A stretch of DNA of 64,000 nucleotides from a virus (IMGVR_UViG_2974542590_000001:91054-155053); one strand, 5' to 3'; shown: positions 6,844-63,045, counted from the stretch's first letter. Program-made: numbers and translations. Notes: a model not told the origin generated them from the letters alone.

Positions 6844-6849
6844 GCTTTT

Positions 6850-7676: not shown

Positions 7677-7949
7677 GGACTAGACTATATCATAACCCTT
7701 AGTTTAGGTTAAGGGTTCTCTGCTTTACATGTCCTATTTAAAATAGGACATTTTTATCTAGTTCTTGGCTACTCCATTTAGTAGCTTACCTAGAAATTTA
7801 GTCGTTAGGCATTTATGCACTTACAGTGCAATTTAGCACGGGATTCCCACTGTCCTATTTTAGGATTTAGGGTCTCTTATCAGGATATTGGTTATTTTCC
7901 TATGCCCGTTTAACAGAGTTTTCGACAATTGTTACCAATTGAAGGGGCG
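7677..7949 (-). mobile_element. group I intron (td-like IA2 core, no ORF) within terL
   Basis: On the minus-strand RNA: ...GTAATCCCGTGCTAAATTGCACTGTAAGTGCATAAATGCCTAACGACTAAA... and a 3' ...GATATAGTCTAGTCCG. These match the AATCCCGTGCTAAATTG / GCCTAACGACTA / GATATAGTC blocks as I recall them from the T4 td intron (recalled sequence, not checked here). Boundaries approximate. Confidence 0.6.
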
Positions 7950-8360: not shown

Positions 8361-9653
8361 ATCTGGTGCGCTCGAATGTACCGTAGCTTTCGCTATACTT
8401 TAACACTACCTTAGGTAGTCGGACTAGACTATATCATACCCTATCTGATAGGGCTTCTGCTTTACATTGATTTACCTTGTTAACAATATGTTGCTCAATA
8501 GATTTCTCAGTCATCAAATAATTCACACGTAGTAGGTTAATGTGATTTTCCTCTGCGTACTCTGTTTTTTGCTTGTCTCGTCTTTGTTGAGATGCTAATT
8601 TTTTATCTCCACCAAAGTAAGCCACAGGTTTAAAATGTTGCACACCATCATATTCGATTAACAAGTTGCAATCGGGGATATAGAAGTCGAATCTTAGGTA
8701 AGAGCCATTGTTCTTTAAATCTTCGTATCCTTTTTGTAACTCGTAAGGAATTTTATGATTGTCTAATATTTTAGTAACAAGTTGCTCTCCTTTGGATTGT
8801 TTACAACGGGGACAACGGTTACCTCTAAGAAAATCTTTAGGTGTAACAGCATAGGTAAACCCACAAGCTATATGAGTAACCTCTACTTTTGTATGATTAT
8901 TTTTGTACTGAGATACAAGCTTGTATTCACCATTTGACAGCTCAGTTACTTCCTGACTAAACTGTTCTGTACTTTTACGTTTCGTTCCATAACAGTTTGG
9001 ACATCTACGACCTCTTAAAAAGTCTTTCGGTGTCATTTCGAATGTAGTTCCACAAGTATGATGCAAAATTTTAATTTTTTTAAAGCTCCGTATATACGGA
9101 GTAATCTGTGTGTACTCTATACCCGCTACTTGCTTAAACCGTTCTGCAAAGTCTTTCGGGTCAGTAGTATTTATTTTGCAATGACATCTACGGTTATCGT
9201 AGATAAAGTGGTTAGTGGTTGTCTCAAATGTTTCTCCACATTCTGCATGGTAAAACGTAACTTTTTGGTTACCTCGCACATAATCTGAAACTCTTTTGTA
9301 CTCGGCTCCTACAAGGTCATATATCCTTTTGTCAATATCTTCATTAGTAATTTTTTTAGCCATTTCCTACCTCCTACAATGTATAATATAGCATACATAC
9401 CGTAGTTGGGGGCAGTTAGGCTAAACTGGTAAATCAACTTTTATAGGCTTAGCAAACTAGTGTTTACTGCACCTAAGTTTAGTCGTTAGGCATTTACAAG
9501 CTTACGCTTGATTTAGCACGGGATTACCTCTATCCTTTAAGGACTTAGGCTCTCTTATCAGCTTATTCCTCCTTACAAATGAGTAAGGTTGGTTATTTTT
9601 GTGTACTTTCAGCTTTGCCCGTTTAACAGAATTTTTCAAAGGTCATTACTGAC
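8361..9653 (-). mobile_element. group I intron within terL carrying a homing-endonuclease ORF
   Basis: The same conserved core blocks as the 7677-7949 intron (tagtcgttaggcatttacaagc...atttagcacgggattacctc... on the + strand), with the HE ORF 8434-9363 in a peripheral loop. Boundaries approximate. Confidence 0.55.
8434..9363 (-). CDS. intron-encoded homing endonuclease: tandem CxxC zinc-finger repeats plus C-terminal PD-(D/E)xK nuclease motif
   Basis: The zinc-finger repeats read HTCGTTFEMTPKDFLRGRRCPNC and IACGFTYAVTPKDFLRGNRCPRC. The C-terminal nuclease motif is ..RFDFYIPDCNLLIEYDGVQHF... Paralogous to the ORFs at 10124-11044 and 54471-55202. Confidence 0.6.
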   Translation of the reverse strand: MAKKITNEDIDKRIYDLVGAEYKRVSDYVRGNQKVTFYHAECGETFETTTNHFIYDNRRCHCKINTTDPKDFAERFKQVAGIEYTQITPYIRSFKKIKILHHTCGTTFEMTPKDFLRGRRCPNCYGTKRKSTEQFSQEVTELSNGEYKLVSQYKNNHTKVEVTHIACGFTYAVTPKDFLRGNRCPRCKQSKGEQLVTKILDNHKIPYELQKGYEDLKNNGSYLRFDFYIPDCNLLIEYDGVQHFKPVAYFGGDKKLASQQRRDKQKTEYAEENHINLLRVNYLMTEKSIEQHIVNKVNQCKAEALSDRV

Positions 9654-10034
9654 CTAAGCCCCAATTAGTTTAGGGGTGCTCCAACGAGTAACAATCTTAT
9701 ATGGAGAAGATGACATAGATTCCAATGCAGAAGCTTCGGCTAATGCAGGAACACGGTCGTACTCGTCCATAGATAGGTAATCAATATCGACCCCTTCTAC
9801 AGCTCCCGGTTTAGAACTTGAACGGAAGTATAAAAAGCTATTACGAATCTTCTTAGCCTTTAATGAGTCTACTTCTGGGTCAATAATCGTACTGTAGTAA
9901 CCACGTTGTAATACTGGGTCAAGACGTGTTTGTACAAATTTAGTCATTTGTTCATTTGTTGGGAAGGTATACAAACACTTAACTGCATCGTAACTATGTG
10001 TATCTGCAAAGTGTAGCATGGTTCCTACACCCAT
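9654..10034 (-). CDS. terL: terminase large subunit, internal exon (Walker B region)
   Basis: The pattern ...KIRNSFLYFRSSSKPGAVEGVDIDYLSMDEYDRVP is similar to the T4 gp17 Walker B neighbourhood. Confidence 0.55.
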   Translation of the reverse strand: MGVGTMLHFADTHSYDAVKCLYTFPTNEQMTKFVQTRLDPVLQRGYYSTIIDPEVDSLKAKKIRNSFLYFRSSSKPGAVEGVDIDYLSMDEYDRVPALAEASALESMSSSPYKIVTRWSTPKLIGA

Positions 10035-11333
10035 TTCACTTACGTTATACCCTCGGTTTCCCGATATTTATTAGGGGACTAGACTATATCATCAACCTAA
10101 TTTTTGGTTTAGGTTGCTCTGCTTTACTTTATATTTTCTTCTAAGAATTTTTTAACATCTGATAGAGTTTTAACCGTATATGGAACTTCAATTAGATTAA
10201 AACCTTTAGCTTTAGCGTACTCTCTTTTTAACTCATCATTAATTTGCTGTAACTCAAACTTAATCTGGGCTTTTTCTTTTGACATACCTCCGAAGTTCTT
10301 ACACTTGAAGTGTTGTTCTCCTTGGTATTCGATAAGCAGTTTCTTACTCGGAACATAAAAATCATAAGATAGCTTGTTTATATTCTTTAAGTCATCAAAT
10401 GTTTTTTGCATTTCAAAAGATAGTCCGAGTTGAGTTAACACAGATTTAACAAGTTTCTCTCCGTTAGGCATGTTGCAGTACTTGCAAGAAACACCTTTGT
10501 AAATAACATCTGATAGTCGAGTATATGATATGTTACCACACATTTCATGTAGTATAGCTACCTTAGTTTGCATATTAGTGTACTCACCAATAATTTTAAA
10601 GTCAGTACCTATTGTCTCTTGCATTTTTCGTTCAGCTTCTTCTTTGGTTAACCTTAATGAATCCTTAGCGCATTTCGCACATCTAGTACCACATAGAAAG
10701 TTACCTGCTGATATTTTACATAAGGTTCCACATTTGTTGTGAATAATATCGATAGGTGTAGCTCTGTTTACATATTTACCAACTACAGTGTATTCATCGC
10801 CAACTAGTGCAAACACTTCTTTACTAAAAGTCTTTGTGTCTTTTCTAGTAGCATTGTTACCAAAACATTGGGGACAACGACTCTTAGAAAGCCTGTTGGG
10901 TGTTGTGGTGTATATGTTTCCACAAGTATTATGTCTAACCTTGATTGGGACGTTTGACTTTATATAAGGTTCTAGTGGAGTGTATTCATCCCCGTATACC
11001 TTATACAAGTCAGCTAAAAATTCTTCATTTGTTTTTCTTCTCATTCGTGATGCAACTCCTTAGTGCTTTCTATATGTAATATAGCACACATTAAGTTTTG
11101 TCAGTTGACATCATAAGAAAATATATTTTTTTATCTAGTTCTCACTAACCCCATTTGGTTAGCTACCTAGAAATTTAGTCGTTAGGCATTTATGCACTTA
11201 CAGTGCAATTTAGCACGGGATTACCTCTATCCCTTTCGGGACTTAGGTTCTCTTATCAGCTTATTGGTTATTCAGCTATGCCCGTTTAACAGAGTTTTCT
11301 TTACAAATCGCTTTATAAAGGGGCTAATCTTAA
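10035..11333 (-). mobile_element. group I intron within terL carrying a homing-endonuclease ORF; inserted in the Walker A codons
   Basis: The conserved core lies at 11150-11300 (+ strand tagtcgttaggcatttatgcacttacagtgcaatttagcacgggatt). A 3' GATGATATAGTCTAGTCC lies at ~10070-10090. The exon-1 ORF ends ...IKSRQLG just upstream. Confidence 0.55.
10124..11044 (-). CDS. intron-encoded homing endonuclease (zinc-finger + PD-(D/E)xK family)
   Basis: Repeated C-x2-C motifs, and a C-terminal ..KLSYDFYVPSKKLLIEYQGEQHF.. matching the 8434-9363 paralog. Confidence 0.6.
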   Translation of the reverse strand: MRRKTNEEFLADLYKVYGDEYTPLEPYIKSNVPIKVRHNTCGNIYTTTPNRLSKSRCPQCFGNNATRKDTKTFSKEVFALVGDEYTVVGKYVNRATPIDIIHNKCGTLCKISAGNFLCGTRCAKCAKDSLRLTKEEAERKMQETIGTDFKIIGEYTNMQTKVAILHEMCGNISYTRLSDVIYKGVSCKYCNMPNGEKLVKSVLTQLGLSFEMQKTFDDLKNINKLSYDFYVPSKKLLIEYQGEQHFKCKNFGGMSKEKAQIKFELQQINDELKREYAKAKGFNLIEVPYTVKTLSDVKKFLEENIK

Positions 11334-11600
11334 CCCAAGCTGTCTACTTTTGATTACAGCTTTAGTTCGGTGTTGGTCATTAATAATTTTTACTTGCCAA
11401 GGTCTATGCGCTTGGGCTTTTTGTTGGTCACGTCCGGAAATCATAAATGTAATCGGATGATTACGAACGGAGTGGTTTCTTAGTAAATATGTGGACGGGG
11501 TTAACATGTCTGTGATGTAGGCAAGCTGTGCAGTTGTTATTTTGTCCGTCCCATACATTTCTTTTGCCATTTTAGCAATATGTTGTGCTTTATTTGTCAT
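11313..11600 (-). CDS. terL: terminase large subunit, first exon; the trailing 7 codons are intron sequence
   Basis: The ORF translation ends ...TKAVIKSRQLG LRLAPL*. SRQLG is the start of the SRQLGKT Walker A motif known from T4 gp17. The ATG overlaps the upstream stop. Confidence 0.55.
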   Translation of the reverse strand: MTNKAQHIAKMAKEMYGTDKITTAQLAYITDMLTPSTYLLRNHSVRNHPITFMISGRDQQKAQAHRPWQVKIINDQHRTKAVIKSRQLGLRLAPL

Positions 11601-12064
11601 TAAAACGTTGCTTCGTTTTCTTTGTTCATTTGGATTTCCTTATCCAATAGCATCTTATCAATTTCTTCATCCGATAATTTAGCTAATTCCTCCAACGAAA
11701 CAACTTCCTCCTCCTCTCCGTCTATGGTAGCCTTTTCAGTGCTTACCTTGTCTGCAATAATATCTTTTTGCGTAGCACTAAGAGCAGGTAATTGACCAGT
11801 TCCCTCTTGCATTCCTGCATTGATATTATTAATTTGCATGTAGATTTGGAATAGACGGGTTAAATCCCCAACGTCATCTATATCTATTGAACCTGCCATA
11901 ACTTTAGCCATGAACTGGTTAATTAACGTGAGAGAAGCGTTATTAAATGTGTCACGTAATCGTTGTTCGGATGTACGTTCCATTTTCTTTTGTTCAGCAT
12001 TTTCTTTAATACGGTCTGCCATACTCATGTGGCTATTCCTCCCCCTTTTTACTTGTATACGCAT
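11600..12064 (-). CDS. hypothetical acidic protein immediately upstream of terL (terminase small subunit candidate by position only)
   Basis: 154-aa ORF whose stop overlaps the terL start. Confidence 0.45.
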   Translation of the reverse strand: MRIQVKRGRNSHMSMADRIKENAEQKKMERTSEQRLRDTFNNASLTLINQFMAKVMAGSIDIDDVGDLTRLFQIYMQINNINAGMQEGTGQLPALSATQKDIIADKVSTEKATIDGEEEEVVSLEELAKLSDEEIDKMLLDKEIQMNKENEATF

Positions 12065-12320
12065 AGCAAGACCGTATGTCTTCGCACATGTTCAATCGTA
12101 CTAAATCTGACATCTTACAGCTTACATGTGCTGTAGTAACTATTGCAGAACCATTAGTAAGAACAAGTCTAGACAACGGTCTTCCACATACTGCACACAT
12201 CCGTGTAGCACTTGCTATGCGTTTATCCCCTTTTCGTATATTTGTTGTCTTTTGAGCTTTGCTAAAAATATACTGCCTTTTTTGCTTTATTTCTTCTCTT
12301 GTAAGGGACATATCCTCCAC
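12033..12320 (-). CDS. small zinc-ribbon protein
   Basis: CAVCGRP...C motifs. 32-nt overlap with the downstream gene. Confidence 0.4.
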   Translation of the reverse strand: MEDMSLTREEIKQKRQYIFSKAQKTTNIRKGDKRIASATRMCAVCGRPLSRLVLTNGSAIVTTAHVSCKMSDLVRLNMCEDIRSCYAYTSKKGEE

Positions 12321-12330
12321 CCCTTATTAA

Positions 12331-12600
12331 TTATTTTTTGATTAACGCTTTTATCTCTTTTAAATCACGCAGTGCTTCATGAAGCTGTTGCTGTAGATTA
12401 TCTTTCTTTTTCCTCTGCTCATAAGAATCAAAGATAATACTAGCTATCCAAGCCCACAAAGAACCCCCTACAAGCATTGTTGCTGTAAAGTGTTGTTCTA
12501 AGCCTAGCATATCTGCAATCAGCTTACTTGCACAAATCATGATGATAACAAAGATGGTGATAAAAATTGATTTGTATAATAATTTTTTCCGTACCTTCAC
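12331..12600 (-). CDS. small membrane protein (holin-like topology)
   Basis: Two predicted TM segments plus a charged C-terminus. Confidence 0.4.
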   Translation of the reverse strand: MKVRKKLLYKSIFITIFVIIMICASKLIADMLGLEQHFTATMLVGGSLWAWIASIIFDSYEQRKKKDNLQQQLHEALRDLKEIKALIKK

Positions 12601-12717
12601 TTTTTCTCACTCTTCCGTTTATATTTTTAGCCTACATATTTAATCTAGCACACCTGATTATAAAGGCTTTGGTGTACTATATTAAAGATAGCTCTAGGAA
12701 AGAAGAGAGGCGATAGA

Positions 12718-12975
12718 ATGTACCGACTAGCATTTATTGCTATGTTATTACTACAGTTGTTCGTTTACTCAGCATCCTACTATGTCACCCGAGCTATACA
12801 GTACAAAAAACTGCAAGCAGATTTAAGTCCTTTGGCATCGTATAAGTATCTTTTGATATTATACGGACTTAGTGTTGGTAGCGTGGTTATGCTCTTCATT
12901 GGGCTGTATACTCCAATTATTTACCTTGTCGGATGTATTCTGGGCATAGGCGGTTACATGTGGTTTTCTAACTGA
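12718..12975 (+). CDS. small membrane protein
   Basis: Two hydrophobic segments. GAGAGG RBS. Confidence 0.5.
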   Translation: MYRLAFIAMLLLQLFVYSASYYVTRAIQYKKLQADLSPLASYKYLLILYGLSVGSVVMLFIGLYTPIIYLVGCILGIGGYMWFSN

Positions 12976-13014
12976 CCGGGAGATTGAGCTATACAACCGA
13001 GAGGGGGAGCACAA

Positions 13015-13362
13015 ATGAACGATTACCAAATAGGTGACCTAGTATTAAGACTGCAACGATTGGAAGACAAGCTCCAGCATGGAGAACTAACTGAGAAGGG
13101 CATTAAACAGGACAACACAGAACTGAATAATGCAGTTAGTGAATTGAAGGACATCGTTAACAGTCTTGATAAAAGGTTAGCTGTTCATGAAGAGAAATAT
13201 TCACATCTTACGTACCAGATTACAAAACTGGAAGAAACCATTGATGCTCTCGAAGGTGTAAACGACAAAGAGTTTGACCATAAAAGGGACATCGTGGAAA
13301 ACATCTTCATGATTGTTCTCGGTGCGGTTGTGACTTACGTGTTCAGCATTTTTAAACCATAG
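13015..13362 (+). CDS. coiled-coil protein with C-terminal TM anchor
   Basis: GAGGGGGAG RBS. Heptad-like repeats followed by IFMIVLGAVVTYVFSIF. Confidence 0.5.
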   Translation: MNDYQIGDLVLRLQRLEDKLQHGELTEKGIKQDNTELNNAVSELKDIVNSLDKRLAVHEEKYSHLTYQITKLEETIDALEGVNDKEFDHKRDIVENIFMIVLGAVVTYVFSIFKP

Positions 13363-13416
13363 AATATGTTATACTTATACTGTAATTATAGCATATTCTG
13401 AAAGGAGAAATTATAA

Positions 13417-13755
13417 GTGAACTATCCAACACACGAAAAGGTCGCAGAAATTACAGTAGGTACTGACAAGGTTTACCTATTTCCACGCTATATGGGCGGA
13501 ACTGTAGTTGATGCACTAACACAAGCTAATGGCTCTGTCAGAGGTAAAGAATTAACTTTCTTGCCTGTTCATACAGGTACTGATAGAACAACAGGTATTC
13601 GATATTTAAATCTACGTCAAGCTACTTTTATTGACTACAAGATGGTAGAGGTACCTACTACAATTACTGACTTGTATTTAGCTCCTAAAGATGAAACTGA
13701 GGAAGCTAAAGAAGCTAGAGAGTATACAATCAAGGAATACTTTGAAACACGGTAA
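13417..13755 (+). CDS. hypothetical protein
   Basis: AAAGGAGA RBS. 112 aa. Confidence 0.5.
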   Translation: MNYPTHEKVAEITVGTDKVYLFPRYMGGTVVDALTQANGSVRGKELTFLPVHTGTDRTTGIRYLNLRQATFIDYKMVEVPTTITDLYLAPKDETEEAKEAREYTIKEYFETR

Positions 13756-13803
13756 GAGGGCATTTTGCTCTCTTTCTTTTTATCTAAAAGTGAATTGTCA
13801 GAA

Positions 13804-13939
13804 AAATGTCCTATTTTAATTTTTTGCAAGTCTTATATATATTAATAATATATAGTCTAATATTTATATAATTTAGATATATAGATTTAATATATAGTAT
13901 TAAGTATATAAGGAGGTCAAAAATTTAAAATAGGACATT
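13804..13939. repeat. second copy of the palindromic element (AAAATGTCCTATTTTAATTTTTT ... AAAAATTTAAAATAGGACATT)
   Basis: Arms at 13804-13826 and 13919-13939. Internal TATATAAGGAGG as in the 6711-6843 copy. Confidence 0.7.
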
Positions 13940-14146
13940 AATTTGAATATTCTGATAATTTAACTATTTATAATCTTTTTTGAACTTTTTGTATTTAGTT
14001 GTTGTCAGGATGATAAAAATGTTGTATACTTTAGTTAGTGATTGACATACCTCAATTACTTCCTCTTTCTTTAAGTCTTTAACTATTGAGTAAGTTGCTG
14101 AATCAGTAGTTAAGAAAAAAGTTGTTAAGTTTGTAAAAAAGTTGCT

Positions 14147-14181
14147 AGTTCTATCAGCTTTTGTGTTATAATGTTGATAGA
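14147..14181 (+). promoter_or_regulatory. sigma-A-type promoter (TTGCTA-N17-TGTTATAAT) overlapped by a 10-bp-arm palindrome
   Basis: The promoter and palindrome read agTTCTATCAgcttttgtgttataatgtTGATAGAAct. Confidence 0.5.
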
Positions 14182-14254
14182 ACTAAAATTCACCTATGAT
14201 GAAACGGTATCATGACTGGCTGTTTTTTCTGACCTGTAATATTGTTTAACTTTT

Positions 14255-14677
14255 ATGCTAAACTCAAAACAGATTGGAAATATAACAGAAATAAAATGTA
14301 TGCTTGCCTTTTTAGAACAAGGATACAACGTTTTAACCCCCTATGGAGATTGTGAAAGATATGATTTTGTTGCTGATATAAAAGGAAATCTTGTTAGAAT
14401 TCAAGTAAAAACTTCAAAATTAGCAAGAAGAGGGAATGGTTTCAATTTCTCAATGAGAAGTAGCAATCGACAAAATGGAGCAATACTTCATCACCGATAT
14501 ACCAAAGAAGAAATTGATTTCTTCGCAACATATTATCAAGATAAATGTTATCTAGTTCCCGTTGAAGAGTGTGGAGCAGAAAAAACATTAAGACTTGACC
14601 CACCAGAAAATGGTCAACGTTATTCGATGGCTGAAGATTATGAATTGGAGGTTATGTTGAAACGATATTATGGCTGA
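14255..14677 (+). CDS. PD-(D/E)xK-family nuclease
   Basis: The motif ..CERYDFVADIKGNLVRIQVKTS.. has a D...(D/E)xK arrangement. Confidence 0.45.
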   Translation: MLNSKQIGNITEIKCMLAFLEQGYNVLTPYGDCERYDFVADIKGNLVRIQVKTSKLARRGNGFNFSMRSSNRQNGAILHHRYTKEEIDFFATYYQDKCYLVPVEECGAEKTLRLDPPENGQRYSMAEDYELEVMLKRYYG

Positions 14678-14815
14678 TGTAGAAAGCAACCAGTTCTTGT
14701 AGGTTCAAGTCCTGCTAGGTGAGTTGCTAGTCAAGATTACTTGGTTAGCAGATTCGTGTTTGTTAATAGCATGATAACCTCCCTCTTCCCCAAATTTAGG
14801 GAGGTTCCACCTTTT

Positions 14816-14887
14816 TGTTAGGTCGTCTAACAGGTAAGACACAATTCTTCGGAAATTGTGATACAGGTTCGAACCCTGTCCTGACAG
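14816..14887 (+). tRNA. tRNA-Arg (anticodon TCG)
   Basis: Hand fold: acceptor TGTTAGG/CCTGACA (one GU pair), D stem GTCT/AGAC, anticodon stem CAATT/AATTG with loop CTTCGGA, T arm ACAGG-TTCGAAC-CCTGT. Confidence 0.6.
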
Positions 14888-14901
14888 TTGTACAGTTACG
14901 G

Positions 14902-14995
14902 CTGTACAAACTATGTTTCTATGTTATAATGGTTGTAGGCTTTTAGAGACATCTCTCTTACCCCTGTTTAATTACAGGGGTTCCCTTTTTGCTTT
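14902..14995 (+). terminator. two hairpins downstream of tRNA-Arg (TTGTACAG-ttacgg-CTGTACAA, and CCCCTGT-ttaatta-ACAGGGG followed by TTCCCTTTTT)
   Basis: Read directly. The second hairpin has a U-rich tail. Confidence 0.45.
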
Positions 14996-15000
14996 TGGAA

Positions 15001-54470: not shown

Positions 54471-55202
54471 ATGCAAATTAAAGGTTGTACAGTAATAGAT
54501 GTAGTTAGTATTGTAGATACTCATGGTAATACAACTGTACGAATGAGGGATAAAGTAACCTTTATGTGTAGTAGGGGTCATGAACAAACTAGAAGAGTCT
54601 ATCAGTGTCTACAGGAAGGCAGTCCCTGTACAGCATGTAAAGGTACGGTTGGGTATACAGGATACTCAAGGTCAGAAGAGATAATATCTAGGGTACTGTC
54701 ATACCATGGTGTAGAACACTTAAGAGAACACAAAATCGTGCACGAAGGGGAGTTACTAAGGGTAGATTTTTACATCCCCAGTATAAATACAATAATAGAG
54801 TATGATGGTAAACAGCATAAGATAGGTAGACCTAAACAAGAAAGTATGAGTGTAGAAGAGCGCACAAGACGAGATAATCTACGTGATGAATACGCACGTT
54901 TACATGGTGTAACTATGATACGTATAGACGACAAAGAAAAAGGAAATAGACTTATTCAGCATATGGCAAAGATATTTCCCGAAATGGGTATTAACCCTCA
55001 GAGTACAGATATGATAGATATAACTCGTGAAGTGTATAACCAGTCAGCAGAAATGTTTGGGTGGACTTCTTATGATGAATTGGAGCGAATAAGTAATATG
55101 CAGAAGCAGTATGGCATTAAAGAAACTATGCGGCTGACAGGTCTGACAAGTTCCCCTATAGGCAGAGCAGTGCATGTTGTAAGAGGTAAAAGTGGGTGTT
55201 GA
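54471..55202 (+). CDS. free-standing homing endonuclease of the zinc-finger + PD-(D/E)xK family; the N-terminal region is frameshifted
   Basis: ..LLRVDFYIPSINTIIEYDGKQHKIG.. matches the two terL-intron HEs. The homologous N-terminal coding continues upstream in the same frame (54309-54470: ...GDYFILTCQKEHRFKFRLDGHYTPRHDCVFCRGKRH) without a start codon. A start-bearing ORF (MELTQREKNIIKLSLKK...) sits in another frame at 54262-54356. Confidence 0.5.
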   Translation: MQIKGCTVIDVVSIVDTHGNTTVRMRDKVTFMCSRGHEQTRRVYQCLQEGSPCTACKGTVGYTGYSRSEEIISRVLSYHGVEHLREHKIVHEGELLRVDFYIPSINTIIEYDGKQHKIGRPKQESMSVEERTRRDNLRDEYARLHGVTMIRIDDKEKGNRLIQHMAKIFPEMGINPQSTDMIDITREVYNQSAEMFGWTSYDELERISNMQKQYGIKETMRLTGLTSSPIGRAVHVVRGKSGC

Positions 55203-55241
55203 CTTTTAGTGTTGACTTTTAGTGTTGACTTTCCAAATTTC
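55203..55241 (+). repeat. triple tandem GTGTTGACTTTTA (three stacked -35 elements)
   Basis: Read directly: gacttttagtgttgacttttagtgttgactttcc. Confidence 0.6.
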
Positions 55242-55371
55242 TAGAAAAAATTTCTAGCTCCCAAAAAATAAGCCCGAGGGTGCGCCCTGCCCTGATAACC
55301 CCCACCCCTAGTAGGGAAAATTTAGTACGGGGTGGGGTTAACTGGTCTAGTCCTATAATACTGGTCTAGTC

Positions 55372-55515
55372 CTATTCGGTTACCTCTTCGAGTTCTTCGA
55401 TTAGTCTTTGGAATGCTTGGTAAACTTCTTCTGAATAATCATCTATATCCATCAAATCATTTTGTAATAGTTCCACTTCTTTTAATAGTCTTTCATATGC
55501 TTTGTTAGTTTCCAT
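55372..55515 (-). CDS. small acidic protein (47 aa)
   Basis: METNKAYERLLKEVELLQNDLMD.... Preceded by the TTGACA-N17 cassette and an AAAGAGAG RBS. Confidence 0.4.
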   Translation of the reverse strand: METNKAYERLLKEVELLQNDLMDIDDYSEEVYQAFQRLIEELEEVTE

Positions 55516-55818
55516 TCTTAACACTCTCTTTCATTTGTTTTATTTATCTTACAAATATAGAATACCAAAGTCATTGCTTAATGTCAATAAAAAAGACTAA
55601 ATGATTAGATAATAATTTTATAGCCCGATTTTAATACTGTACTAATCTTACAATCTGGCAAGCCTAACACCTCCATAGCAAAACCCGCCCGCCATGCTTC
55701 TTTACTCACTAGCCACCTAACGCCCTCATTTTCCACCGTAAGCACCTTATATCCTCCTTTAAGGTATTTATATGTAAAGCCCGCTAAAACCTCGCTACGG
55801 GCTTTATATGCCGTTATA

Positions 55819-56085
55819 TTATAGTCCTAGTTCTGAAAATAACTCTTTTTCATTTGGGTAGATAAGACTTACATTCTTATAAACAAATACTAATTCCGAT
55901 AACTCCTTGTTTTCTAGTTCTTCATTTGATATTTCTACGCTGTAAGCTCCTTGCATGTAAGCAATCAAAACCGGATTTGGATCTACTATGTTCCCTCTAG
56001 TTAGTTCATAGCCTCCTAACTCGTTATATGCTTCTAGTGTAGCGCCTTTGTGTTCTGCTAGTTTGATGAAGTCTTTTAGTTTCAT
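55819..56085 (-). CDS. hypothetical small protein
   Basis: AGAAAGGGAATGAAT RBS. 88 aa. Confidence 0.5.
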   Translation of the reverse strand: MKLKDFIKLAEHKGATLEAYNELGGYELTRGNIVDPNPVLIAYMQGAYSVEISNEELENKELSELVFVYKNVSLIYPNEKELFSELGL

Positions 56086-56137
56086 TTTTATTCATTCCCT
56101 TTCTTGTGTGAGTGAGAGAGGCTTTCCCCTCTCTCTC

Positions 56138-56284
56138 TTATTCTGGATACCGTCCCGTGTCTGCTAGTGTGTTCCCGTCTTCTTCGTCCTTGAATTGGTC
56201 AAAAAATCCCTCGTTTTCTAGTTCGTCCATGAAGTCCTTGAATTCTTTACTATCTAATAACTCGTCTAGTGTCTTGTATTCCAT
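56138..56284 (-). CDS. small acidic protein (48 aa)
   Basis: MEYKTLDELLDSKEFKDFMDELENEGFF.... GGAGGAAACAAC RBS. Replaces the antisense ORF-track call 56112-56321. Confidence 0.45.
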   Translation of the reverse strand: MEYKTLDELLDSKEFKDFMDELENEGFFDQFKDEEDGNTLADTGRYPE

Positions 56285-56496
56285 GTTGTTTCCTCCTTTT
56301 CGTGCATATCTTTTAGTTTAAATTGATAATTTGTTCTATTATTTAAATAATCAATTGTCCATTGTCCGCCATAATCATCAACGAAGTACATTTCACCATA
56401 TTTATTTACTACTACATTATACTCTTTACCTGTCGTCCACCAAGGTGTATCTGACTTCATACATACATATGTTTGCCCTTCGTTTGCGTTTAACAT
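56266..56496 (-). CDS. hypothetical small protein
   Basis: AGGAGGAAAACAAA RBS. Confidence 0.5.
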   Translation of the reverse strand: MLNANEGQTYVCMKSDTPWWTTGKEYNVVVNKYGEMYFVDDYGGQWTIDYLNNRTNYQFKLKDMHEKEETTWNTRH

Positions 56497-56570
56497 TTTG
56501 TTTTCCTCCTCTTTATCTTATGAACTAAGTATAGCATGAGTTGACAATGGTCTCAACTCGTGCTATGATG

Positions 56571-56831
56571 TTAGATATATTCATAAGCTAATTTATCTAA
56601 CCATTTTAGCATCTTTATTTCAGTGCTAACGTCGTTCCCTACCTCTCTTTCTGCTTCTAGCGCGTTCGCAACGTCTTTACAAGCTAATAAATAAGCGCCT
56701 TCGCAACTGAATGGATTTTTGATTGGTTCGATAAAATTGCCGTCTTCGTCGATATGGATGAATGGGTTGTTTTGCTCGTTTTCAATAATTCTGTCATATG
56801 CTTCGTAGTACGCTTCTTTTAAAGTTGTCAT
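56571..56831 (-). CDS. small protein; its N-terminus (MTTLKEAY) is paralogous to the ORF at 59019-59402
   Basis: ATG at 56831 after the AAAGAAAGAGGGAACTAAAA cassette. Confidence 0.55.
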   Translation of the reverse strand: MTTLKEAYYEAYDRIIENEQNNPFIHIDEDGNFIEPIKNPFSCEGAYLLACKDVANALEAEREVGNDVSTEIKMLKWLDKLAYEYI

Positions 56832-56841
56832 TTTTAGTTCC

Positions 56842-56905
56842 CTCTTTCTTTTATTTATCTTACAAATATAGAATACCAAAGTTATCTCTTTTTGTCAATA
56901 GAAAA
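56842..56905 (-). promoter_or_regulatory. representative early-promoter/RBS cassette (TTGACA-N17-TATTCT... AAAGAAAGAGGGA)
   Basis: Minus-strand reading of the region gives ...ctaTTGACAaaaagagataactttggTATTCTatatttgtaagataaataaaagaaagaggga. The cassette is present before 16 minus-strand genes. Confidence 0.55.
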
Positions 56906-57457
56906 GTATAAATTTTTTTCTTTGTGTGGTCGTGCTCGTTTTCCTGTAAGGTTTAACCCTAACCACACCTTTATATTATCATGTATGTTTTAACTTGTCA
57001 AGTATTAAACTCAACTTTTTTTGTTTTGTTTCTCGTCCGATTAGATGCCTCTCTCTTAACTATCTATACTATACCATGTATAGAGATGAAATGCAAGTAT
57101 AAACTATTAAATATTTCAATTTATTTTAAGCTATTTTGAAGCATTCTAACATAGTTCTGTTTATTTATGGATAATTATATATAAATCTATGTAAAACCCC
57201 GCTACGGGCTTTCTGTGGCTTCCTGTGGCTATTATACGCCCTCCAGCTTCCTATTTGTGCTAGAATGATAGAAAAAACAGTGTGCGCCTCTATAAGCGGG
57301 TTCCAAAAAGCTCGACTTTTGAAAATCTGGGGCTTTAGGTCTTTTTAGTTCTTTGGTCTTTTTTCTTATTTTGCTCCTTTTAGGTCTTTTTTTTGAGTTC
57401 CTTGCTCCTTTGCTCCTCTCTCCCTCCCCTCTCTCTCCCTCTCCCTCTCTTATGTCT

Positions 57458-57784
57458 CTATCTACCCCCCTTTGCTCGTCTTTCTGCTCGATTTCTTGAT
57501 ACGGTGCTATATAGTTGCATTTGTCTTTCTGCTTTCTTAAGTTTTTGGCATAGTCGTTTCTGTTCCTGTTCTGATAAGTTCCCTATTGATGTAATACCCC
57601 TCATTCCTTGTATAGTTGCATTTCTCGGGTCTAGTTCTTGCTGTTCTTGCTGTTCATGTTCTAAAATCATTACAAGCCCCTCCCCTTGTCCTTGTCCTTG
57701 TCCTTTTCCTCTCTCTCTTTCCTTATCAAGTTTATTTCTTTTTGTTTGTTTGTTTGTGGTTACATTTAAGAACGTACTCCGCAA
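57458..57784 (-). CDS. possible Gly/Gln/Glu-rich low-complexity protein
   Basis: 108-aa ORF across a polypurine tract. Could be a non-coding compositional artefact. Confidence 0.2.
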   Translation of the reverse strand: MRSTFLNVTTNKQTKRNKLDKERERGKGQGQGQGEGLVMILEHEQQEQQELDPRNATIQGMRGITSIGNLSEQEQKRLCQKLKKAERQMQLYSTVSRNRAERRAKGGR

Positions 57785-58001
57785 TCAATTCAAGCTCCCC
57801 GTCAGTATTTGTAGGAATGTATACACGTTTATAGAATTGTGCTGTATGAAATAGGTAACCGCTACGCCCGTGCAAGCGTAACCGAAAAGCAATAAACTCC
57901 TTTAGGCTTTCTTTTTCCTTTTCTGTGAGTGGTTCTTTTGTTATTGACTCGCAAGCCTTTAAAATGCCACCAATCAAAAGTTCCTCTTTCGTTTGTTTCA
58001 T
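57732..58001 (-). CDS. hypothetical small protein
   Basis: ATG at 58001 after the cassette (..AAGAAAGAGAGTGATAAGA). Confidence 0.5.
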   Translation of the reverse strand: MKQTKEELLIGGILKACESITKEPLTEKEKESLKEFIAFRLRLHGRSGYLFHTAQFYKRVYIPTNTDGELELIAEYVLKCNHKQTNKKK

Positions 58002-58123
58002 TCTTATCACTCTCTTTCTTATTTATCTTACAAGTTAATTGTACCAAGTTTATCTCTTTTTGTCAATAGATAAACATAAAAATTTTTAATTTTAGAAAGA
58101 GGGGTTTCCCCCTCCCCCCTTTG

Positions 58124-58537
58124 TTATGCCTGTACCCGGTTAAATTCATTTATAACGGCGTTTTCCCCGTGTTCGTCTAAATAGATTTCTTGTCTTTCCC
58201 CGTCCTTGTAAGTGAATAACCAAAAGCCACCATTTACAGGTTTATAACCAAAGTCAAAATTTTGAAAACCTAACTCAGATAAGAAAGTTGCCACGCTATC
58301 ACTATCAGAACGGCTTTCCCCGTATACCTCTATTAGTTGCATGTTTTCAAGGTCAACTTTTGCGGTTAGTGTTTCATAGTGGTATAAGCTTACTGTTTTA
58401 CCGTTGTTTTCTACTCTATACACTTCTTGTAAGTCCCCCACGCCCCACATGTCTCTTTGTCTTGCTCGTTTGATTGCTTTCCCTTTCTTTTCTGCTCGTT
58501 TCATTAGTGTGATAACTGTTTCAACTTTTTTACTCAT
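58124..58537 (-). CDS. hypothetical protein
   Basis: Cassette-driven. 137 aa. Confidence 0.55.
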   Translation of the reverse strand: MSKKVETVITLMKRAEKKGKAIKRARQRDMWGVGDLQEVYRVENNGKTVSLYHYETLTAKVDLENMQLIEVYGESRSDSDSVATFLSELGFQNFDFGYKPVNGGFWLFTYKDGERQEIYLDEHGENAVINEFNRVQA

Positions 58538-58623
58538 TTTTTAGTCCCTCTTTCTTTTATTTATCTTACATGCTTATTGTATCAAGTTTATCTCTTTTTG
58601 TCAATAACTTTTTTTAAATTTTT

Positions 58624-58902
58624 TTATTCGTGTTTATTCACGTTTTTCCCTAGTTCGTTGCCTAGTTGGTTTTTTACACTTCTAATATATAACTCCAATG
58701 AGCATGCAAGGTTAGAAAGTTCGTTCATTTCTTTCGCTAGTTCTTCCAGTTGTTTGGCTACGTGTTCCGGTGTAGCTCCTTTTCTTGTCTGGTTCTTTAA
58801 GTTGTTAATTTCTTGCTTGTGTAATACTGATAAACGTTTAACGTCGTTTATTGGGTAAAAACTTCTTTCTAGTTGCTGATATAAATATTCTATATTTAAC
58901 AT
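58624..58902 (-). CDS. hypothetical coiled-coil protein
   Basis: AGAAAGGGAGCATAAGA RBS. Confidence 0.5.
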   Translation of the reverse strand: MLNIEYLYQQLERSFYPINDVKRLSVLHKQEINNLKNQTRKGATPEHVAKQLEELAKEMNELSNLACSLELYIRSVKNQLGNELGKNVNKHE

Positions 58903-58992
58903 TCTTATGCTCCCTTTCTATGTCTTTATATTATCAAATTTATTTCTTTTTGTCAATAGATAAACATAAAAAATTTTTATTTTTTTATGTAA

Positions 58993-59011
58993 GGCGGGAA
59001 CACGTCCCGCC
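58993..59011 (-). terminator. rho-independent terminator hairpin GGCGGGAC-gtgt-TCCCGCC
   Basis: Identical copies at 60846-60864 and 61724-61742, each directly downstream of a minus-strand gene and followed (minus sense) by an A/T-rich run. Confidence 0.55.
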
Positions 59012-59018
59012 GTGTTTG

Positions 59019-59402
59019 TTATGCTTCTTCTAGTTCGTCAAGTTCTTGTCTTGCTAGTTCTTCCACCGCAAACCATGCCAGTAAGTTTTGGTTGTTTTGG
59101 TCTGCTAACGGATCTAGGTCGTCCGCTTCTTCTTCTAACAAGTCTTCCCAATCGTTCCACTTGTCACCAAAAAGCCCTTTTTCGTCTAGCCCTGTATCTT
59201 CTTTTAGTTCGTGTAACATTGCAAGAATCTCGTCACGGTGTTCGTTAAAAAATTGAGTTGTTTCGTGGTAGTAAATCAAACCGCCAACCATTCCACTGAT
59301 TGCCCCGTGTTGTGTTAAGTCCTGTAAGTATGTTTTTCGTTCTTCTGGTTCGTTTAGGTTGCTTCCAATAATTTCGTTATATGCTTCTTTTAAAGTTGTC
59401 AT
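59019..59402 (-). CDS. hypothetical acidic protein (MTTLKEAY... paralog)
   Basis: Cassette-driven. 127 aa. Confidence 0.55.
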   Translation of the reverse strand: MTTLKEAYNEIIGSNLNEPEERKTYLQDLTQHGAISGMVGGLIYYHETTQFFNEHRDEILAMLHELKEDTGLDEKGLFGDKWNDWEDLLEEEADDLDPLADQNNQNLLAWFAVEELARQELDELEEA

Positions 59403-59576
59403 TTTTAGTTCCCTCTTTCTTTTATTTATCTTACAAGTTTATTGTATCAGGTCTATTTCTTTTTGTCAATAACTTTGACTAAAATTTTTATACTCTTTTT
59501 TGAGTTCGTCCGAATAAGTGTTTCCTTTGTTTACATGTATAATGTTACCATGTATGTTTTTATTTGTCAACTTTTT

Positions 59577-59750
59577 TTATTCTCGTTTTTTAATTCCTTT
59601 GAGTCGTTTTCTTTCTTCCATGAAATAGTACATTTCTTCTTGTGTGTAGTTACCGTTGTAAATAAATTCGATTGGCTTTTTGATTGTCTCCCGGGCTAAC
59701 TTTTCCATTCTAGCCCGTTTCAAAAATTCTAGTTTTTTGTTCGGTTTCAT
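59577..59750 (-). CDS. small basic protein (57 aa)
   Basis: MKPNKKLEFLKRARMEKLARE.... AAAGGGGGGACGG RBS. Confidence 0.4.
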   Translation of the reverse strand: MKPNKKLEFLKRARMEKLARETIKKPIEFIYNGNYTQEEMYYFMEERKRLKGIKKRE

Positions 59751-59771
59751 ATCGTCACACCGTCCCCCCTT

Positions 59772-60149
59772 TTAATCTCTTTCAATGTACACAAGCCCGT
59801 CAAGTGTAAACACGTTATAAATTTCGGTGTAAGCTCGTATATAATCCCACTTTGTCAAGTCGGTGCTTTCTTCCATTTCGTCTATCATACTATAGGAATC
59901 TGTTTCGTGTAGGTCTGTGTAAATAGCTTCCAAAATGTTTTCATCTGTTAACTCGAAAAACGTGTTTTTTTGTGTAGCCCCGTTGTAGGTTGATAGTGTA
60001 ATGTTTTGGATGTAACCATCTGCGATTTTTTCGTTGAAATCGGCTTGCGCTTCTTCTGGTGTTTCATGGGCTTGTTTGTAGTCATTCATATCCTTATAAC
60101 GTGTAACGTTTGCCAATGCTAGTTGAATATTAGAATTTTTATTTGTCAT
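59772..60149 (-). CDS. hypothetical acidic protein
   Basis: AAGGAGGAACTAAAAA RBS. Confidence 0.55.
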   Translation of the reverse strand: MTNKNSNIQLALANVTRYKDMNDYKQAHETPEEAQADFNEKIADGYIQNITLSTYNGATQKNTFFELTDENILEAIYTDLHETDSYSMIDEMEESTDLTKWDYIRAYTEIYNVFTLDGLVYIERD

Positions 60150-60163
60150 TTTTTAGTTCCTCC

Positions 60164-60418
60164 TTAGAATGTTTCCGCAATAAGTTCCGCTATTACGTCG
60201 TTAACAGTTAACCAAGTCCGGTCACTCTCCGGATATTTATAGCCCGCAAGCTTTACCGCTTTTTTGCTTTTTTCATAGAAATATTTATTTGTAACACCGT
60301 TGTATTTTAGTTCTGAAATTGGTCGACTTGCTAACCATGAATTTTGCACCTCTGCTTTAAAACCTGTAAAATCTACATTTTTTCTTAGATAGTTTTTTAC
60401 CTTTGCTTTTTTACTCAT
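60164..60418 (-). CDS. hypothetical basic protein
   Basis: Cassette-driven. Confidence 0.55.
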   Translation of the reverse strand: MSKKAKVKNYLRKNVDFTGFKAEVQNSWLASRPISELKYNGVTNKYFYEKSKKAVKLAGYKYPESDRTWLTVNDVIAELIAETF

Positions 60419-60503
60419 TTTTTTAGCCCCTCTTTCTTTTATTTATCTTACAAATATAGAATACCAAAGTTATTTCTTTTTGTCAATAACTTTTTTTATT
60501 TTT

Positions 60504-60740
60504 TTATTCTTCTTCTAACGTTTTCCAACTGTTTTCCTTTATTAAGTCTATATCTAAGTTTTGCAAGTCTGAAAATAAAAGGTTTAAATCATACTTTTCT
60601 AGCTCCTGTTGATTGTCTGCCACGTCACCAATATCAATAAGATAGTCTTTTCCCGTTTCTTTTTCGATTAGATGATAATTCATATCCCACGAATTTAATG
60701 GATATTTTAATAAATATTTTTCGTTTTCTGCAATAATCAT
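60504..60740 (-). CDS. hypothetical acidic protein
   Basis: Cassette-driven. Confidence 0.55.
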   Translation of the reverse strand: MIIAENEKYLLKYPLNSWDMNYHLIEKETGKDYLIDIGDVADNQQELEKYDLNLLFSDLQNLDIDLIKENSWKTLEEE

Positions 60741-60876
60741 TTTTTTAGTCCCTCTTTCTTTTATTTATCTTACAAGTTTATTATATAGTGTTTATTTCTT
60801 TTTGTCAATAGATAAACATAAAAATTTTTAATTTTTTTTATGTAAGGCGGGAACACGTCCCGCCGTGTTTGTTATG

Positions 60877-61167
60877 CTAGTAATAAATAGCGTTGTCCCT
60901 ATATTGTTTGACTTCTCTTTGTAGCACGTCTTTCGCTTTGCATGTATTTGCGACTATTCCTCTAGTGCTTGCGGTCGTGCTGTAAAGCTCGTAAACTGTT
61001 CCATCGTTCATCGTTACATATTGATAAACGTAGTGACTGCCGTAGCTAGTTGGTCTTGATTGGATAAAATATGATTGTTCTTGATTGATTTGTGTAGTAT
61101 CTAGGTAGCCCTCACTTCTCCATTCTGTAGCCTTTAACATATGTTTTTGATTGAATTGTTTTTCCAT
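60877..61167 (-). CDS. hypothetical protein
   Basis: Cassette-driven, followed by the terminator. Confidence 0.55.
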   Translation of the reverse strand: MEKQFNQKHMLKATEWRSEGYLDTTQINQEQSYFIQSRPTSYGSHYVYQYVTMNDGTVYELYSTTASTRGIVANTCKAKDVLQREVKQYRDNAIYY

Positions 61168-61252
61168 TTTTAGTTCCCTCTTTCTTTTATTTATCTTACA
61201 AATACATTGTATAGCGTTTATTGTCTTTTGTCAATAACTTTTTTAAATTTTT

Positions 61253-61441
61253 TTATTTATTTTTTACTGTATAATCTAAATCATCGAAAATCATAAAAGC
61301 AAAAATGAACGAAGTTAGTCCGATAATTAGTGACACTGTAAACGAAAATACTGCCGTAACAACTGAACCAAGTAAAAACATGACAGCAAAGGCAGCCAAC
61401 TTTTTATAAAAATTTCTTTTCTTGTATAGTTTCTTTTGCAT
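61253..61441 (-). CDS. small membrane protein
   Basis: AAGGAGGAAAAAGAAAC RBS. One to two TM segments. Confidence 0.5.
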   Translation of the reverse strand: MQKKLYKKRNFYKKLAAFAVMFLLGSVVTAVFSFTVSLIIGLTSFIFAFMIFDDLDYTVKNK

Positions 61442-61752
61442 GTTTCTTTTTCCTCCTTGTTTTACCTTACATCTTTATTATATAGTGTTTATTTCTTTTT
61501 GTCAATAGTTTTGTATAAGTTTTTTATTTAAATTTTTAAGCTCGTTTATTGCCTTGCTTCTTGTCTGTAAAATTTCTTTTATTTCTCTCTTTTCCCTCCT
61601 TGCGATAAAAAAGGTTTTTGCTTTTTTCATGTTTTCCCCTCTCTTTCTATGTCTTTATAATATCAGGTCTATTTCTTTTTGTCAATAGATAAACATAAAA
61701 ATTTTTAATTTTTTTTTATGTAAGGCGGGAACACGTCCCGCCGTTTTATATG

Positions 61753-62028
61753 TTAGTTTTCTGTAATTAGTAAAGCATTTTCCAAAGCTTTTAAGGCGTT
61801 TTCTTTTTGCTCGTTTGTTCCTAAAAATAAGTTGTCAAGTGTTTTACGTGTATAATGTAAGTCCATGTTTACGGTGTCGGGATTGATTGTTTTCATTGCT
61901 AACTTGATACCGTTATACATGCCAACAAGTTCGCTGTGAGTTTCGTTTTCAGATTTTAAACCTCTGTTTACCATTTTAATATTTTTTTCAATCTCTTTTA
62001 AAAAGTTTACAATAATTTGTTTTTCCAT
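61753..62028 (-). CDS. hypothetical protein
   Basis: Cassette-driven, followed by the terminator. Confidence 0.55.
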   Translation of the reverse strand: MEKQIIVNFLKEIEKNIKMVNRGLKSENETHSELVGMYNGIKLAMKTINPDTVNMDLHYTRKTLDNLFLGTNEQKENALKALENALLITEN

Positions 62029-62320
62029 TTTTAAGTCCCTCTTTCTTTTATTTATCTTACAAGTTTATTATATAGTGTTTATTTCTTTTTGTCAATAACT
62101 TTTTTTAAATTTTTTTATTTATTTTTTTGTTAGCTCCTTTCTTTAACTGTCTATACTATACCATGCTTATTTCTTAATGTCAATATAAAACACTAAAAAA
62201 GATGAAAAACTTTTTTCTTCTATATATAAGGAAAAAACGGGTTTGAGTGGTGGCGGATCGAACGGGCAAAGGTGGCAGGTCTGGCGGTCGGATGCCACGC
62301 TTCGAAACTTTATAAGCTGT

Positions 62321-62459
62321 TTGTAGCCCGCTACTTAGAGGATTTTTGTAGCCTGCTACTTAGGGTTTTTTACTGTAGCCCGTTACTTAGAAGATTTTAG
62401 CTAACCTGCTACTTAGAAGAAAAAAGCTAGCCTGCTACTTAGGCTAGCCTGTTACTTAG
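62321..62459. repeat. iteron array: 7 copies of TAGCCYGYTACTTAG at ~20-25-bp spacing
   Basis: The copies read gtagcccgctacttag / gtagcctgctacttag / gtagcccgttacttag / ctaacctgctacttag / ctagcctgctacttag / gctagcctgttacttag. A GC-rich island lies just upstream (62230-62300). Confidence 0.7.
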
Positions 62460-62923: not shown

Positions 62924-63045
62924 ATCCTATCCTAAGTGTATCCTATCCTAAGTGCATCCTATCCTAAACCTATCCTATCTTATCCTAAATGTATCCTATC
63001 TTATCCTATCCTAATAGCTATTCATCCTCGTATATCCTATCTATA
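62924..63045. repeat. second iteron array: ~8 copies of ATCCTATCCTAA(G/A)TG and TATCCTATCT variants
   Basis: Read directly. Confidence 0.7.

Follow-up and report, generated by a model that had tools for sequence, protein, structure and literature searches.

What does a dense run of small genes near the end of a virus genome encode, and why does almost the same promoter and leader stand in front of so many of them? The 64,000-nucleotide stretch IMGVR_UViG_2974542590_000001:91054-155053 (here the window; a window coordinate is the record position minus 91,053, and the window ends where the record ends) raises this question between positions 55372 and 62122, where 19 small open reading frames (ORFs), all on the minus strand, are interspersed with 12 cassettes of one promoter-leader family. 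Window positions 55300 to 62300 are 100% identical to Enterococcus phage EFP01 (KY549443/NC_047796; 155,053 bp), which is classified in Herelleviridae, Brockvirinae, Schiekvirus and is thus an SPO1-related herellevirus. We consider it likely that the EFP01 array is an immediate-early, hyperplastic gene region at the right end of the linear virion chromosome, entering a direct terminal repeat (DTR) of ~2.05 kb.

The EFP01 record was deposited as "circular," carries no repeat annotation, and labels all 17 coding sequences in the interval (gp174 to gp190) "hypothetical protein." An initial annotation made from the DNA alone had counted ~17 tiny genes, which agrees with these coding sequences but misses two unannotated ORFs, orfX1 and orfX2. 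It had also described products of 36 to 137 amino acids (aa) that were mostly acidic; the products in fact span 42 to 137 aa, with 9 of 19 clearly acidic and 6 of 19 basic. An Rfam scan of 54 to 64 kb at an E value of ≤1 returned zero matches, and a tRNA scan found none within the array.

A family of promoter-leader cassettes

Near-consensus promoters, defined as TTGACA, 17 nt, and TAnnnT, occur at 17 minus-strand sites between 55587 and 63907, and 16 of the genome's 25 perfect minus-strand matches fall in record positions 146.6 to 155.0 kb, or 5% of its length. The motif ATTGACAAAAAGA is present in 10 exact copies from 56,887 to 62,096, exclusively on the minus strand, a total reached in 0 of 100 shuffles, which bears out the earlier claim that small minus-strand ORFs are densely packed here behind a recurring promoter and leader. 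When the complete 155-kb genome was searched, ATTGACAAAAAGA, GTAAGATAAATAA, AAAGAAAGAGGG, and a hairpin, GGCGGGACGTGTTCCCGCC, were all confined to the array.

Alignment of the sites yields a 12-member family whose order is an AT-rich upstream tract, (C/T)TATTGACA, a spacer beginning AAAAGAaATAAac..., and a −10 that varies between members; after a 6-nt discriminator come a short A-rich leader opening with GTAAGATAAA and then a strong Shine-Dalgarno (SD) sequence. The −35 element is ATTGACA, the 17-nt spacer is semi-conserved, and a TG extension is frequent, while the −10 hexamer is TACAAT in four cassettes, TATAAT in three, TATTCT in three, and TATTAT and TAATAT in one each. The leader GTAAGATAAA lies exactly 6 nt past the −10 in 10 of the 12 members, and the full 25-nt leader with AAAGAAAGAGGG is found in seven copies. 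For every ORF, the energy of the SD/anti-SD duplex is between −9 and −15 kcal/mol. A family cassette directly precedes 12 ORFs, not 16 genes as first proposed; gp185, gp184, orfX2, and gp177 are operon members without their own family cassette, and gp178, gp176, and gp175 have other promoters or no strong promoter. Five additional strong promoters fall outside the family, three of which (62183, 59570, and 57001) stand in tandem upstream of a cassette promoter. The near-identical promoter and ribosome-binding-site cassettes of the initial annotation are therefore real as one family, but the core quoted for them, TTGACAAAAAGAGATAACTTTGGTATTCT, fits only two sites at ≤3 mismatches, and the supposedly common TATTCT is a minority −10.

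Sharing of the cassette with relatives, which the same annotation had expected, was found in all eight relatives examined. In 8 genomes, all 82 leader-type cassettes, chosen as strong promoters with GTAAG[AG]TAAA within 16 nt of the −10, carry this motif exactly 6 nt after the −10. Within the cassette the −35 and the leader are conserved whereas the 3′ half of the spacer, the −10, and the discriminator vary, a pattern that suggests a constraint on the RNA leader itself, perhaps for translation, 5′-end protection, or coordinated regulation. Among 185,579 bacterial and archaeal species, each represented by one genome, none carries an exact copy of the leader, which is thus not a mimic of a host leader; in IMG/VR it matches only three contigs (four stretches). 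No description of the cassette was found in the literature searched.

Two further features of the promoters were observed. Four orphan strong promoters (62155 to 62183, 59542 to 59570, 56973 to 57001, and ~57070 to 57100) lie 70 to 100 nt upstream of cassette promoters, and two of them have CATGGTATAGTATAGAyAGTTAA in common, together with an SD-like sequence and no ORF; they may be scars of cassette-to-cassette deletions. In addition, the hairpin GAGTTGA...TCAACTC after gp179 (56528 to 56569) bears promoter-like sites on both strands, and its plus-strand site at 56541 (TTGACA-17-TATGAT with a TG extension) would yield RNA antisense to gp179.

Hairpins between genes

The hairpin GGCGGGACGTGTTCCCGCC occurs in exactly three copies, at 58993, 60846, and 61724, each flanked by a stop codon and the block TTACAT-A8-TTAAAAATTTTTATGTTTATC-TATTGACA, with a stem stability of ~−14 kcal/mol. 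The three identical terminators of the initial annotation were thus correctly placed, but their run on the coding strand is of A and not of U: there the stem is followed by UUACAU and A8 with no U-tract, whereas GUGUUUGUUAUG comes after it on the plus strand, and a terminator scan scores all copies as plus-strand terminators. A role in terminating the array transcripts is thus no more than plausible by analogy. It is possible, although in our judgment unlikely, that the hairpins are not array terminators at all and instead stop antisense transcription from the plus strand, where a strong promoter-like site lies at 56541, or act as 3′-end stabilizers or processing sites. However, the hairpins are invariably placed between a stop codon and the following promoter, the one variant stem seen (GGCGGAA/TTCCGCC in phage 113) is compensatory, and the annotators of phage 113 labeled the same hairpin a terminator. 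Furthermore, the stem-loops of the promoter-early stem-loop (PeSL) elements, regulatory cassettes of T4-type phages, terminate efficiently in vivo (Arbiol et al. 2010, PMC2839356). Of the 12 family cassettes, 4 have a G/C hairpin upstream and the remainder have none; a further hairpin overlaps the −35 of P56556.

A different hairpin, AAAGCCCG..CGGG(G/C)TTT, is carried by a 46-nt repeat (78% identical) at 55765 to 55810 and 57172 to 57217. Both copies are in the predicted DTR, one near its outer end and one after gp176.

Gene turnover and proposed recombination among relatives

Genes in this region come and go between cassettes. Where EFP01 has the single cassette P59469, phage iF6 has two that enclose an extra 240-nt gene, iF6_183, and these two are near-identical over ~70 nt from ATTGACA to ATG, with one mismatch. 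Overlap of high-scoring segment pairs, together with annotation, points to the same extra 240-nt gene between two cassettes at this position in phages 113 and 163. PEF1 represents a second independent case, with an extra 51-aa gene between two cassettes at the position of P58604. In 113, PEF1, PEf771, and SHEF13, gp188 is replaced by an unrelated 408-nt gene. In relatives, the stretches that replace gp188, or gp186 plus the beginning of gp185, reach from a cassette to either a hairpin or another cassette. The promoters themselves are also mobile in appearance: orthologous positions show 75% identity in the 29-nt promoter core, compared to 92% in the downstream gene, and of 75 cassettes, 38 find the best match to their core in another genome at a non-orthologous position and 13 at the orthologous one, with ties for 24.

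We propose that the repeated cassettes, 70 to 150 nt long, would supply homology for recombination, so that single genes could be inserted, deleted, or replaced between them and promoter cores swapped between positions in a PeSL-like manner. This role is shown in part, by the cassettes found at the borders of inserted, deleted, or replaced genes and by the reassortment of cores. Breakpoints in the unique part of the array form ~9 distinct clusters, 6 of them in the cassette/hairpin modules that cover ~24% of the sequence; because breakpoints are shared by descent and the clusters are few, these statistics are weak. Similarity of 29-nt cores at different positions could also partly reflect a small set of permitted promoters, or convergence.

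The cassettes might alternatively be alike solely through selection for maximal expression, with no role in recombination and with turnover due to unrelated illegitimate events. The conserved elements (−35, fixed spacing, leader, and SD) are indeed those relevant to expression, and the breakpoints, being non-independent, do little to decide the matter. Nevertheless, two independent single-gene indels flanked by duplicated cassettes, and promoter cores that are far more diverged than the adjacent genes and often best matched at non-orthologous positions, make this explanation improbable.

Taking recombination and the leader together, we tentatively suggest, as something possible rather than probable, that Schiekvirus shuffles its immediate-early ORFans by means of PeSL-like mobile cassettes and that the invariant leader at the predicted +1 (GUAAGAUAAA...) serves as an RNA-level handle of about ten early mRNAs. 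PeSL-like mobile cassettes have so far been described only for T4-type phages of Gram-negative hosts. If the leader is such a handle, it could co-stabilize the early mRNAs, raise their translation, or permit their joint shutoff. A transposon-like element was rejected from reading of the cassette alignments only; no search was made for terminal inverted repeats or target duplications.

A predicted short terminal repeat at the chromosome end

DTRs are known for three relatives of EFP01: 2,108 bp in iF6, from restriction mapping and rapid amplification of genomic ends (PMC10054541), and, as predicted by PhageTerm, 2,105 bp in phage 163 (PMC9860891) and 2,552 bp in Porthos (PMC11210271). All three begin at (A)GATTTTCAAAAGTCGAGC, which aligns to window position 57,328/57,327, and finish at ...GGGCACCCTCGACCCT(C), which aligns to ~55,274. 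Since these boundaries align identically and EFP01 is collinear with all three phages over both, the EFP01 DTR is predicted to span 55,274 to 57,328. It would contain three tandem promoters and gp179 to gp174, or 6 of the 19 ORFs, and it appears once in the EFP01 record, a collapsed "circular" assembly. The other ~13 ORFs (57.4 to 62.1 kb) would occupy unique DNA directly upstream of the right-hand repeat and be transcribed towards the chromosome end. At the inner end of the DTR the array meets plus-strand genes in a convergent junction, which a long hairpin (55,300 to 55,337) marks.

This layout differs from the SPO1-type terminal-repeat host-takeover architecture first proposed, of which the herellevirus setting and the small ORFans with sigma-A promoters and strong ribosome-binding sites stand, while most of the array is predicted to fall outside the repeat. 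Were the entire 6.6-kb array within a long SPO1-style terminal redundancy, each gene would be present twice per virion. In favor of this, the long terminal repeats of SPO1 (13 kb) and of Kayvirus (about 8 kb) do carry genes of this type, gp181 and gp183 have homologues in such repeats, and the collapsed EFP01 record bears no annotated repeat. However, DTRs of just 2.1 to 2.55 kb with identical boundaries in three close and collinear relatives, and the position of the iF6 gp181 homologue (153550 to 153963) outside the iF6 DTR (154485 to 156592), leave this arrangement very little probability.

Several features near the predicted DTR and the array were also observed. Directly outside the DTR start, positions 57329 to 57476 on the minus strand form the window's most purine-rich tract (82 to 87% A+G), rich in GGAG/AGGAG motifs; a tract equivalent to it (81 to 83%), though of different sequence, occurs at the same place in iF6, Porthos, and 163, and it may act in chromosome-end formation or as an element of a 3′ untranslated region. 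Just outside the inner end, at 55196 to 55232, are three exact 13-nt direct repeats (AAAGTCAACACTA, minus strand), of which iF6 and Porthos have two copies at the same place; these could be a protein-binding or packaging-related site. An HNH endonuclease gene (54471 to 55202, plus strand) abuts the predicted DTR end. The spot is empty of genes in iF6, 163, and Porthos and is occupied by another endonuclease in 113 and PEf771, so that it resembles a homing-endonuclease hotspot. Beyond the other end of the array, two iteron-like repeat blocks lie on either side of gp191, one (62320 to 62459) with ~4.6 copies of a 26-nt unit (CTAAGTAGCAGGCTA...) and one (62924 to 63028) with three to four copies of a 16- to 21-nt unit (TAGGATAGGATA...). 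The first block contains the region's only canonical hairpin-plus-T-run terminator (62424 to 62450), and the neighboring gp192 has a helix-turn-helix domain.

Genes and products

Each array ORF belongs to a separate PHROG of unknown function, or to none, and gp183 (DUF7222) is the only array protein with a Pfam domain. Two products connect the array to other herelleviruses. The first, gp181, is a homologue of Kayvirus TreP (35% identity, E value of 4e-12), whose gene the annotations of MSA6 and Fi200W place within the left long terminal repeat. Homologues of the second, gp183, are found twice per record near the ends of Bacillus herelleviruses, in terminal repeats. These homologues indicate that the array genes are of the "terminal-repeat" type despite the short repeat of EFP01. 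Searches of array proteins against those encoded in SPO1 positions 1 to 15,000 gave no similarity (best E value of 0.011), and homology to SPO1 gp37 to gp60 is absent. The AlphaFold 2 model of gp181 is confident (pLDDT of 93.5). When the array proteins were joined into one phmmer query, the matches among PDB sequences were confined to linker noise, and no array protein resembled any of these sequences.

The proteins opening with MTTLKEAY, gp179 and gp183, had been taken for paralogues, but their likeness ends after ~9 residues, and the shared N terminus arises because cassette homology extends ~25 nt into the ORF. Alternatively, a single gene might have been duplicated in tandem together with its promoter, so that the repeats would be what is left of this and the array would be a paralogous gene family. 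The near-identical cassettes and these two openings suggest as much, but the idea is hardly credible, and we reject it, given that all-against-all BLASTP within the array found no paralogues, that each ORF is in a different PHROG, and that the gp179/gp183 similarity is so short. Coordinates of the array, its cassettes, hairpins, and genes are listed in Table 1.

Table 1. Features of the EFP01 array in window coordinates
Feature	Position	Strand	Description
Whole array	55372..62122	-	19 small ORFs (gp174-gp190 plus 2 unannotated), 12 family cassettes
Predicted DTR	55274..57328	.	~2.05 kb; record 146,327-148,381; inner end ± ~8 nt; by homology to iF6, 163, and Porthos
P62095	62029..62122	-	TTGACA-17-TATAAT, leader GTAAGATAAATAAAAGAAAGAGGGA; precedes gp190
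P61685	61631..61712	-	TATTAT, alternative leader AAAGACATAGAAAGAG; precedes gp189
P61505	61442..61536	-	TATAAT, leader GTAAGGTAAA; inside gp189 3′ end; precedes orfX1
P61234	61168..61261	-	TACAAT; precedes gp188
P60808	60741..60835	-	TATAAT; precedes gp187
P60486	60419..60513	-	TG-extended TATTCT; precedes gp186-gp185-gp184 operon
P59469	59403..59496	-	TACAAT; precedes gp183
P58956	58903..58983	-	TAATAT, alternative leader; precedes gp182
P58604	58538..58631	-	TACAAT; precedes gp181
P58066	58002..58093	-	TACAAT; precedes gp180
P56898	56832..56925	-	TG-extended TATTCT; precedes gp179; within predicted DTR
P55587	55516..55614	-	TTGACAttaagc..TATTCT, divergent SD region; precedes gp174; within predicted DTR
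Non-family promoter	62155..62183	-	TTGACA-17-TATAGT; tandem upstream of P62095; SD-like sequence, no ORF
Non-family promoter	59542..59570	-	TTGACA-17-TAACAT; tandem upstream of P59469
Non-family promoter	56973..57001	-	TTGACA-17-TAATAT; tandem upstream of P56898; within predicted DTR
P56556	56528..56556	-	TTGAGA-17-TATACT; precedes gp178-gp177; −35 inside hairpin GAGTTGA..TCAACTC
Hairpin	61724..61742	-	GGCGGGA-CGTGT-TCCCGCC; after gp190, then TTACAT and A-run, then P61685
Hairpin	60846..60864	-	GGCGGGA-CGTGT-TCCCGCC; after gp188, upstream of P60808
Hairpin	58993..59011	-	GGCGGGA-CGTGT-TCCCGCC; after gp183, upstream of P58956
Distinct G/C hairpin	58094..58119	-	GGGGAGGGGG-AAAC-CCCCTCTTTCT; after gp181, equivalent position relative to P58066
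Long hairpin	55300..55337	-	AACCCCACCCC...GGGGTGGGGTT; after gp174, just inside predicted DTR end, at convergent minus/plus-strand junction
gp190	61753..62028	-	91 aa; phrog_14846, function unknown
gp189	61502..61630	-	42 aa; basic; phrog_20676
orfX1	61253..61441	-	62 aa; hydrophobic core (weak match to two transmembrane segments); unannotated in EFP01, annotated in iF6, 163, and 113
gp188	60877..61167	-	96 aa; phrog_8573
gp187	60504..60740	-	78 aa; acidic; phrog_19608
gp186, gp185, gp184	59577..60418	-	Operon; 84, 125, and 57 aa; function unknown
gp183	59019..59402	-	127 aa; acidic; Pfam DUF7222
gp182	58624..58902	-	92 aa; no family match
gp181	58124..58537	-	137 aa; Kayvirus TreP homologue
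gp180	57732..58001	-	89 aa; last gene ahead of predicted DTR
orfX2	57458..57670	-	Possible 70-aa ORF; unannotated; no family match; doubtful
gp179, gp178, gp177, gp176, gp175, gp174	55372..56831	-	86, 76, 48, 88, 46, and 47 aa; inside predicted DTR; function unknown

Probable early expression and significance

Most of the small ORFans are self-contained expression modules consisting of an AT-rich tract, a consensus promoter for host sigma-A, the leader, and a strong SD. We envision that unmodified host RNA polymerase would fire all modules at once upon DNA entry, giving a burst of many small proteins that probably act on host processes or defenses, before the phage's own sigma and anti-sigma factors redirect transcription. 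Both factors are annotated in EFP01, so a later transcriptional switch would be possible. In Kayvirus, early transcripts start ~6 nt after the −10 (PMC7698491), the point at which the leader begins in the cassettes described above, and terminal-repeat transcripts of phage K are detectable at 2 min (PMC9241854). Expression from the terminal repeat of Listeria phage CKA15 is highest at 5 min, and its early region reaches past the repeat (PMC12282133).

Several points weigh against the interpretation of the array as an immediate-early host-takeover region at a chromosome end. No Schiekvirus transcriptome or expression data were found in the literature searched; the timing is therefore transferred from Kayvirus and Pecentumvirus, and the start sites, promoter strength, and host-takeover role are likewise predictions. 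The limits of the EFP01 DTR are predicted from homology rather than from reads. Pfam and PHROGs assign a function to 0 of the 19 ORFs, and the gp181 model has no structural neighbor or match to a known fold. To these may be added the coding-strand sequence behind the hairpins, the weak breakpoint statistics, and possible convergence of the promoter cores, as discussed above.

Even so, the array is a real, well-defined feature in an already sequenced phage, best filed as a herellevirus immediate-early region with PeSL-like behavior. Schiekvirus phages are therapy candidates against vancomycin-resistant enterococci, yet every one of their earliest genes carries a hypothetical annotation. The present map provides a list of about 19 autonomous early ORFs as candidates for toxicity and anti-defense screens, as well as compact promoter-leader parts for Enterococcus that are predicted to be very strong. 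It offers a likely explanation for the divergence of this region between otherwise similar therapeutic phages, and it corrects the assumption that such genes must sit in the terminal repeat.

Comparison with known systems

SPO1 (PMC6873191, PMC7414437), whose terminal redundancy was compared directly with the array, belongs to the same family, and its small early ORFans are likewise clustered, with a strong sigma-A promoter and a strong ribosome-binding site before each or nearly each of them. This redundancy contains ~13 early-type promoters that have an extended consensus and leader hairpins in common, with an identity of ~73% across as much as 125 nt. However, the cassette sequence is unrelated, no SPO1 protein resembles those of the EFP01 array, and internal repeat pairs number 64 in 6.9 kb of the EFP01 array compared to 12 in 13.3 kb of SPO1. 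The EFP01 genes also differ in lying all on one strand, with only ~2 kb (six genes) in the terminal repeat. Since SPO1 has a looser cassette with fewer repeats, the EFP01 array represents a more uniform, lineage-specific version of the same design.

Among other herelleviruses, the Tre genes of Kayvirus (phage K and MSA6) share the homology of gp181 to TreP, and Kayvirus early promoters share the consensus sigma-70 elements, 17-nt spacer, TG extension, and start ~6 nt after the −10 (PMC7698491). In contrast, treP lies inside a repeat of ~8 kb in Kayvirus and outside one of ~2 kb in EFP01, and Kayvirus terminators have poly-T tails that the EFP01 hairpins lack. The Listeria Pecentumvirus CKA15 is similar in being a herellevirus with a short terminal repeat (3.1 kb) past which the earliest genes extend (PMC12282133), although expression was measured in CKA15 and is inferred in EFP01, and no shared cassette is reported for CKA15.

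A parallel in behavior comes from PeSL. The two have in common repeated cassettes of ~100 nt that combine an AT-rich tract with a strong sigma-70 promoter and an SD, a concentration of these in hyperplastic DNA that is rich in ORFans, and cassettes on either side of single genes gained or lost between relatives. They differ in phage family, host, and sequence. The G/C stem-loop that belongs to PeSL has a counterpart in only about 4 of the 12 EFP01 cassettes, where it stands ahead of the AT tract. The EFP01 cassettes are thus an analogue of PeSL from a different phage family, and not a member of that group.

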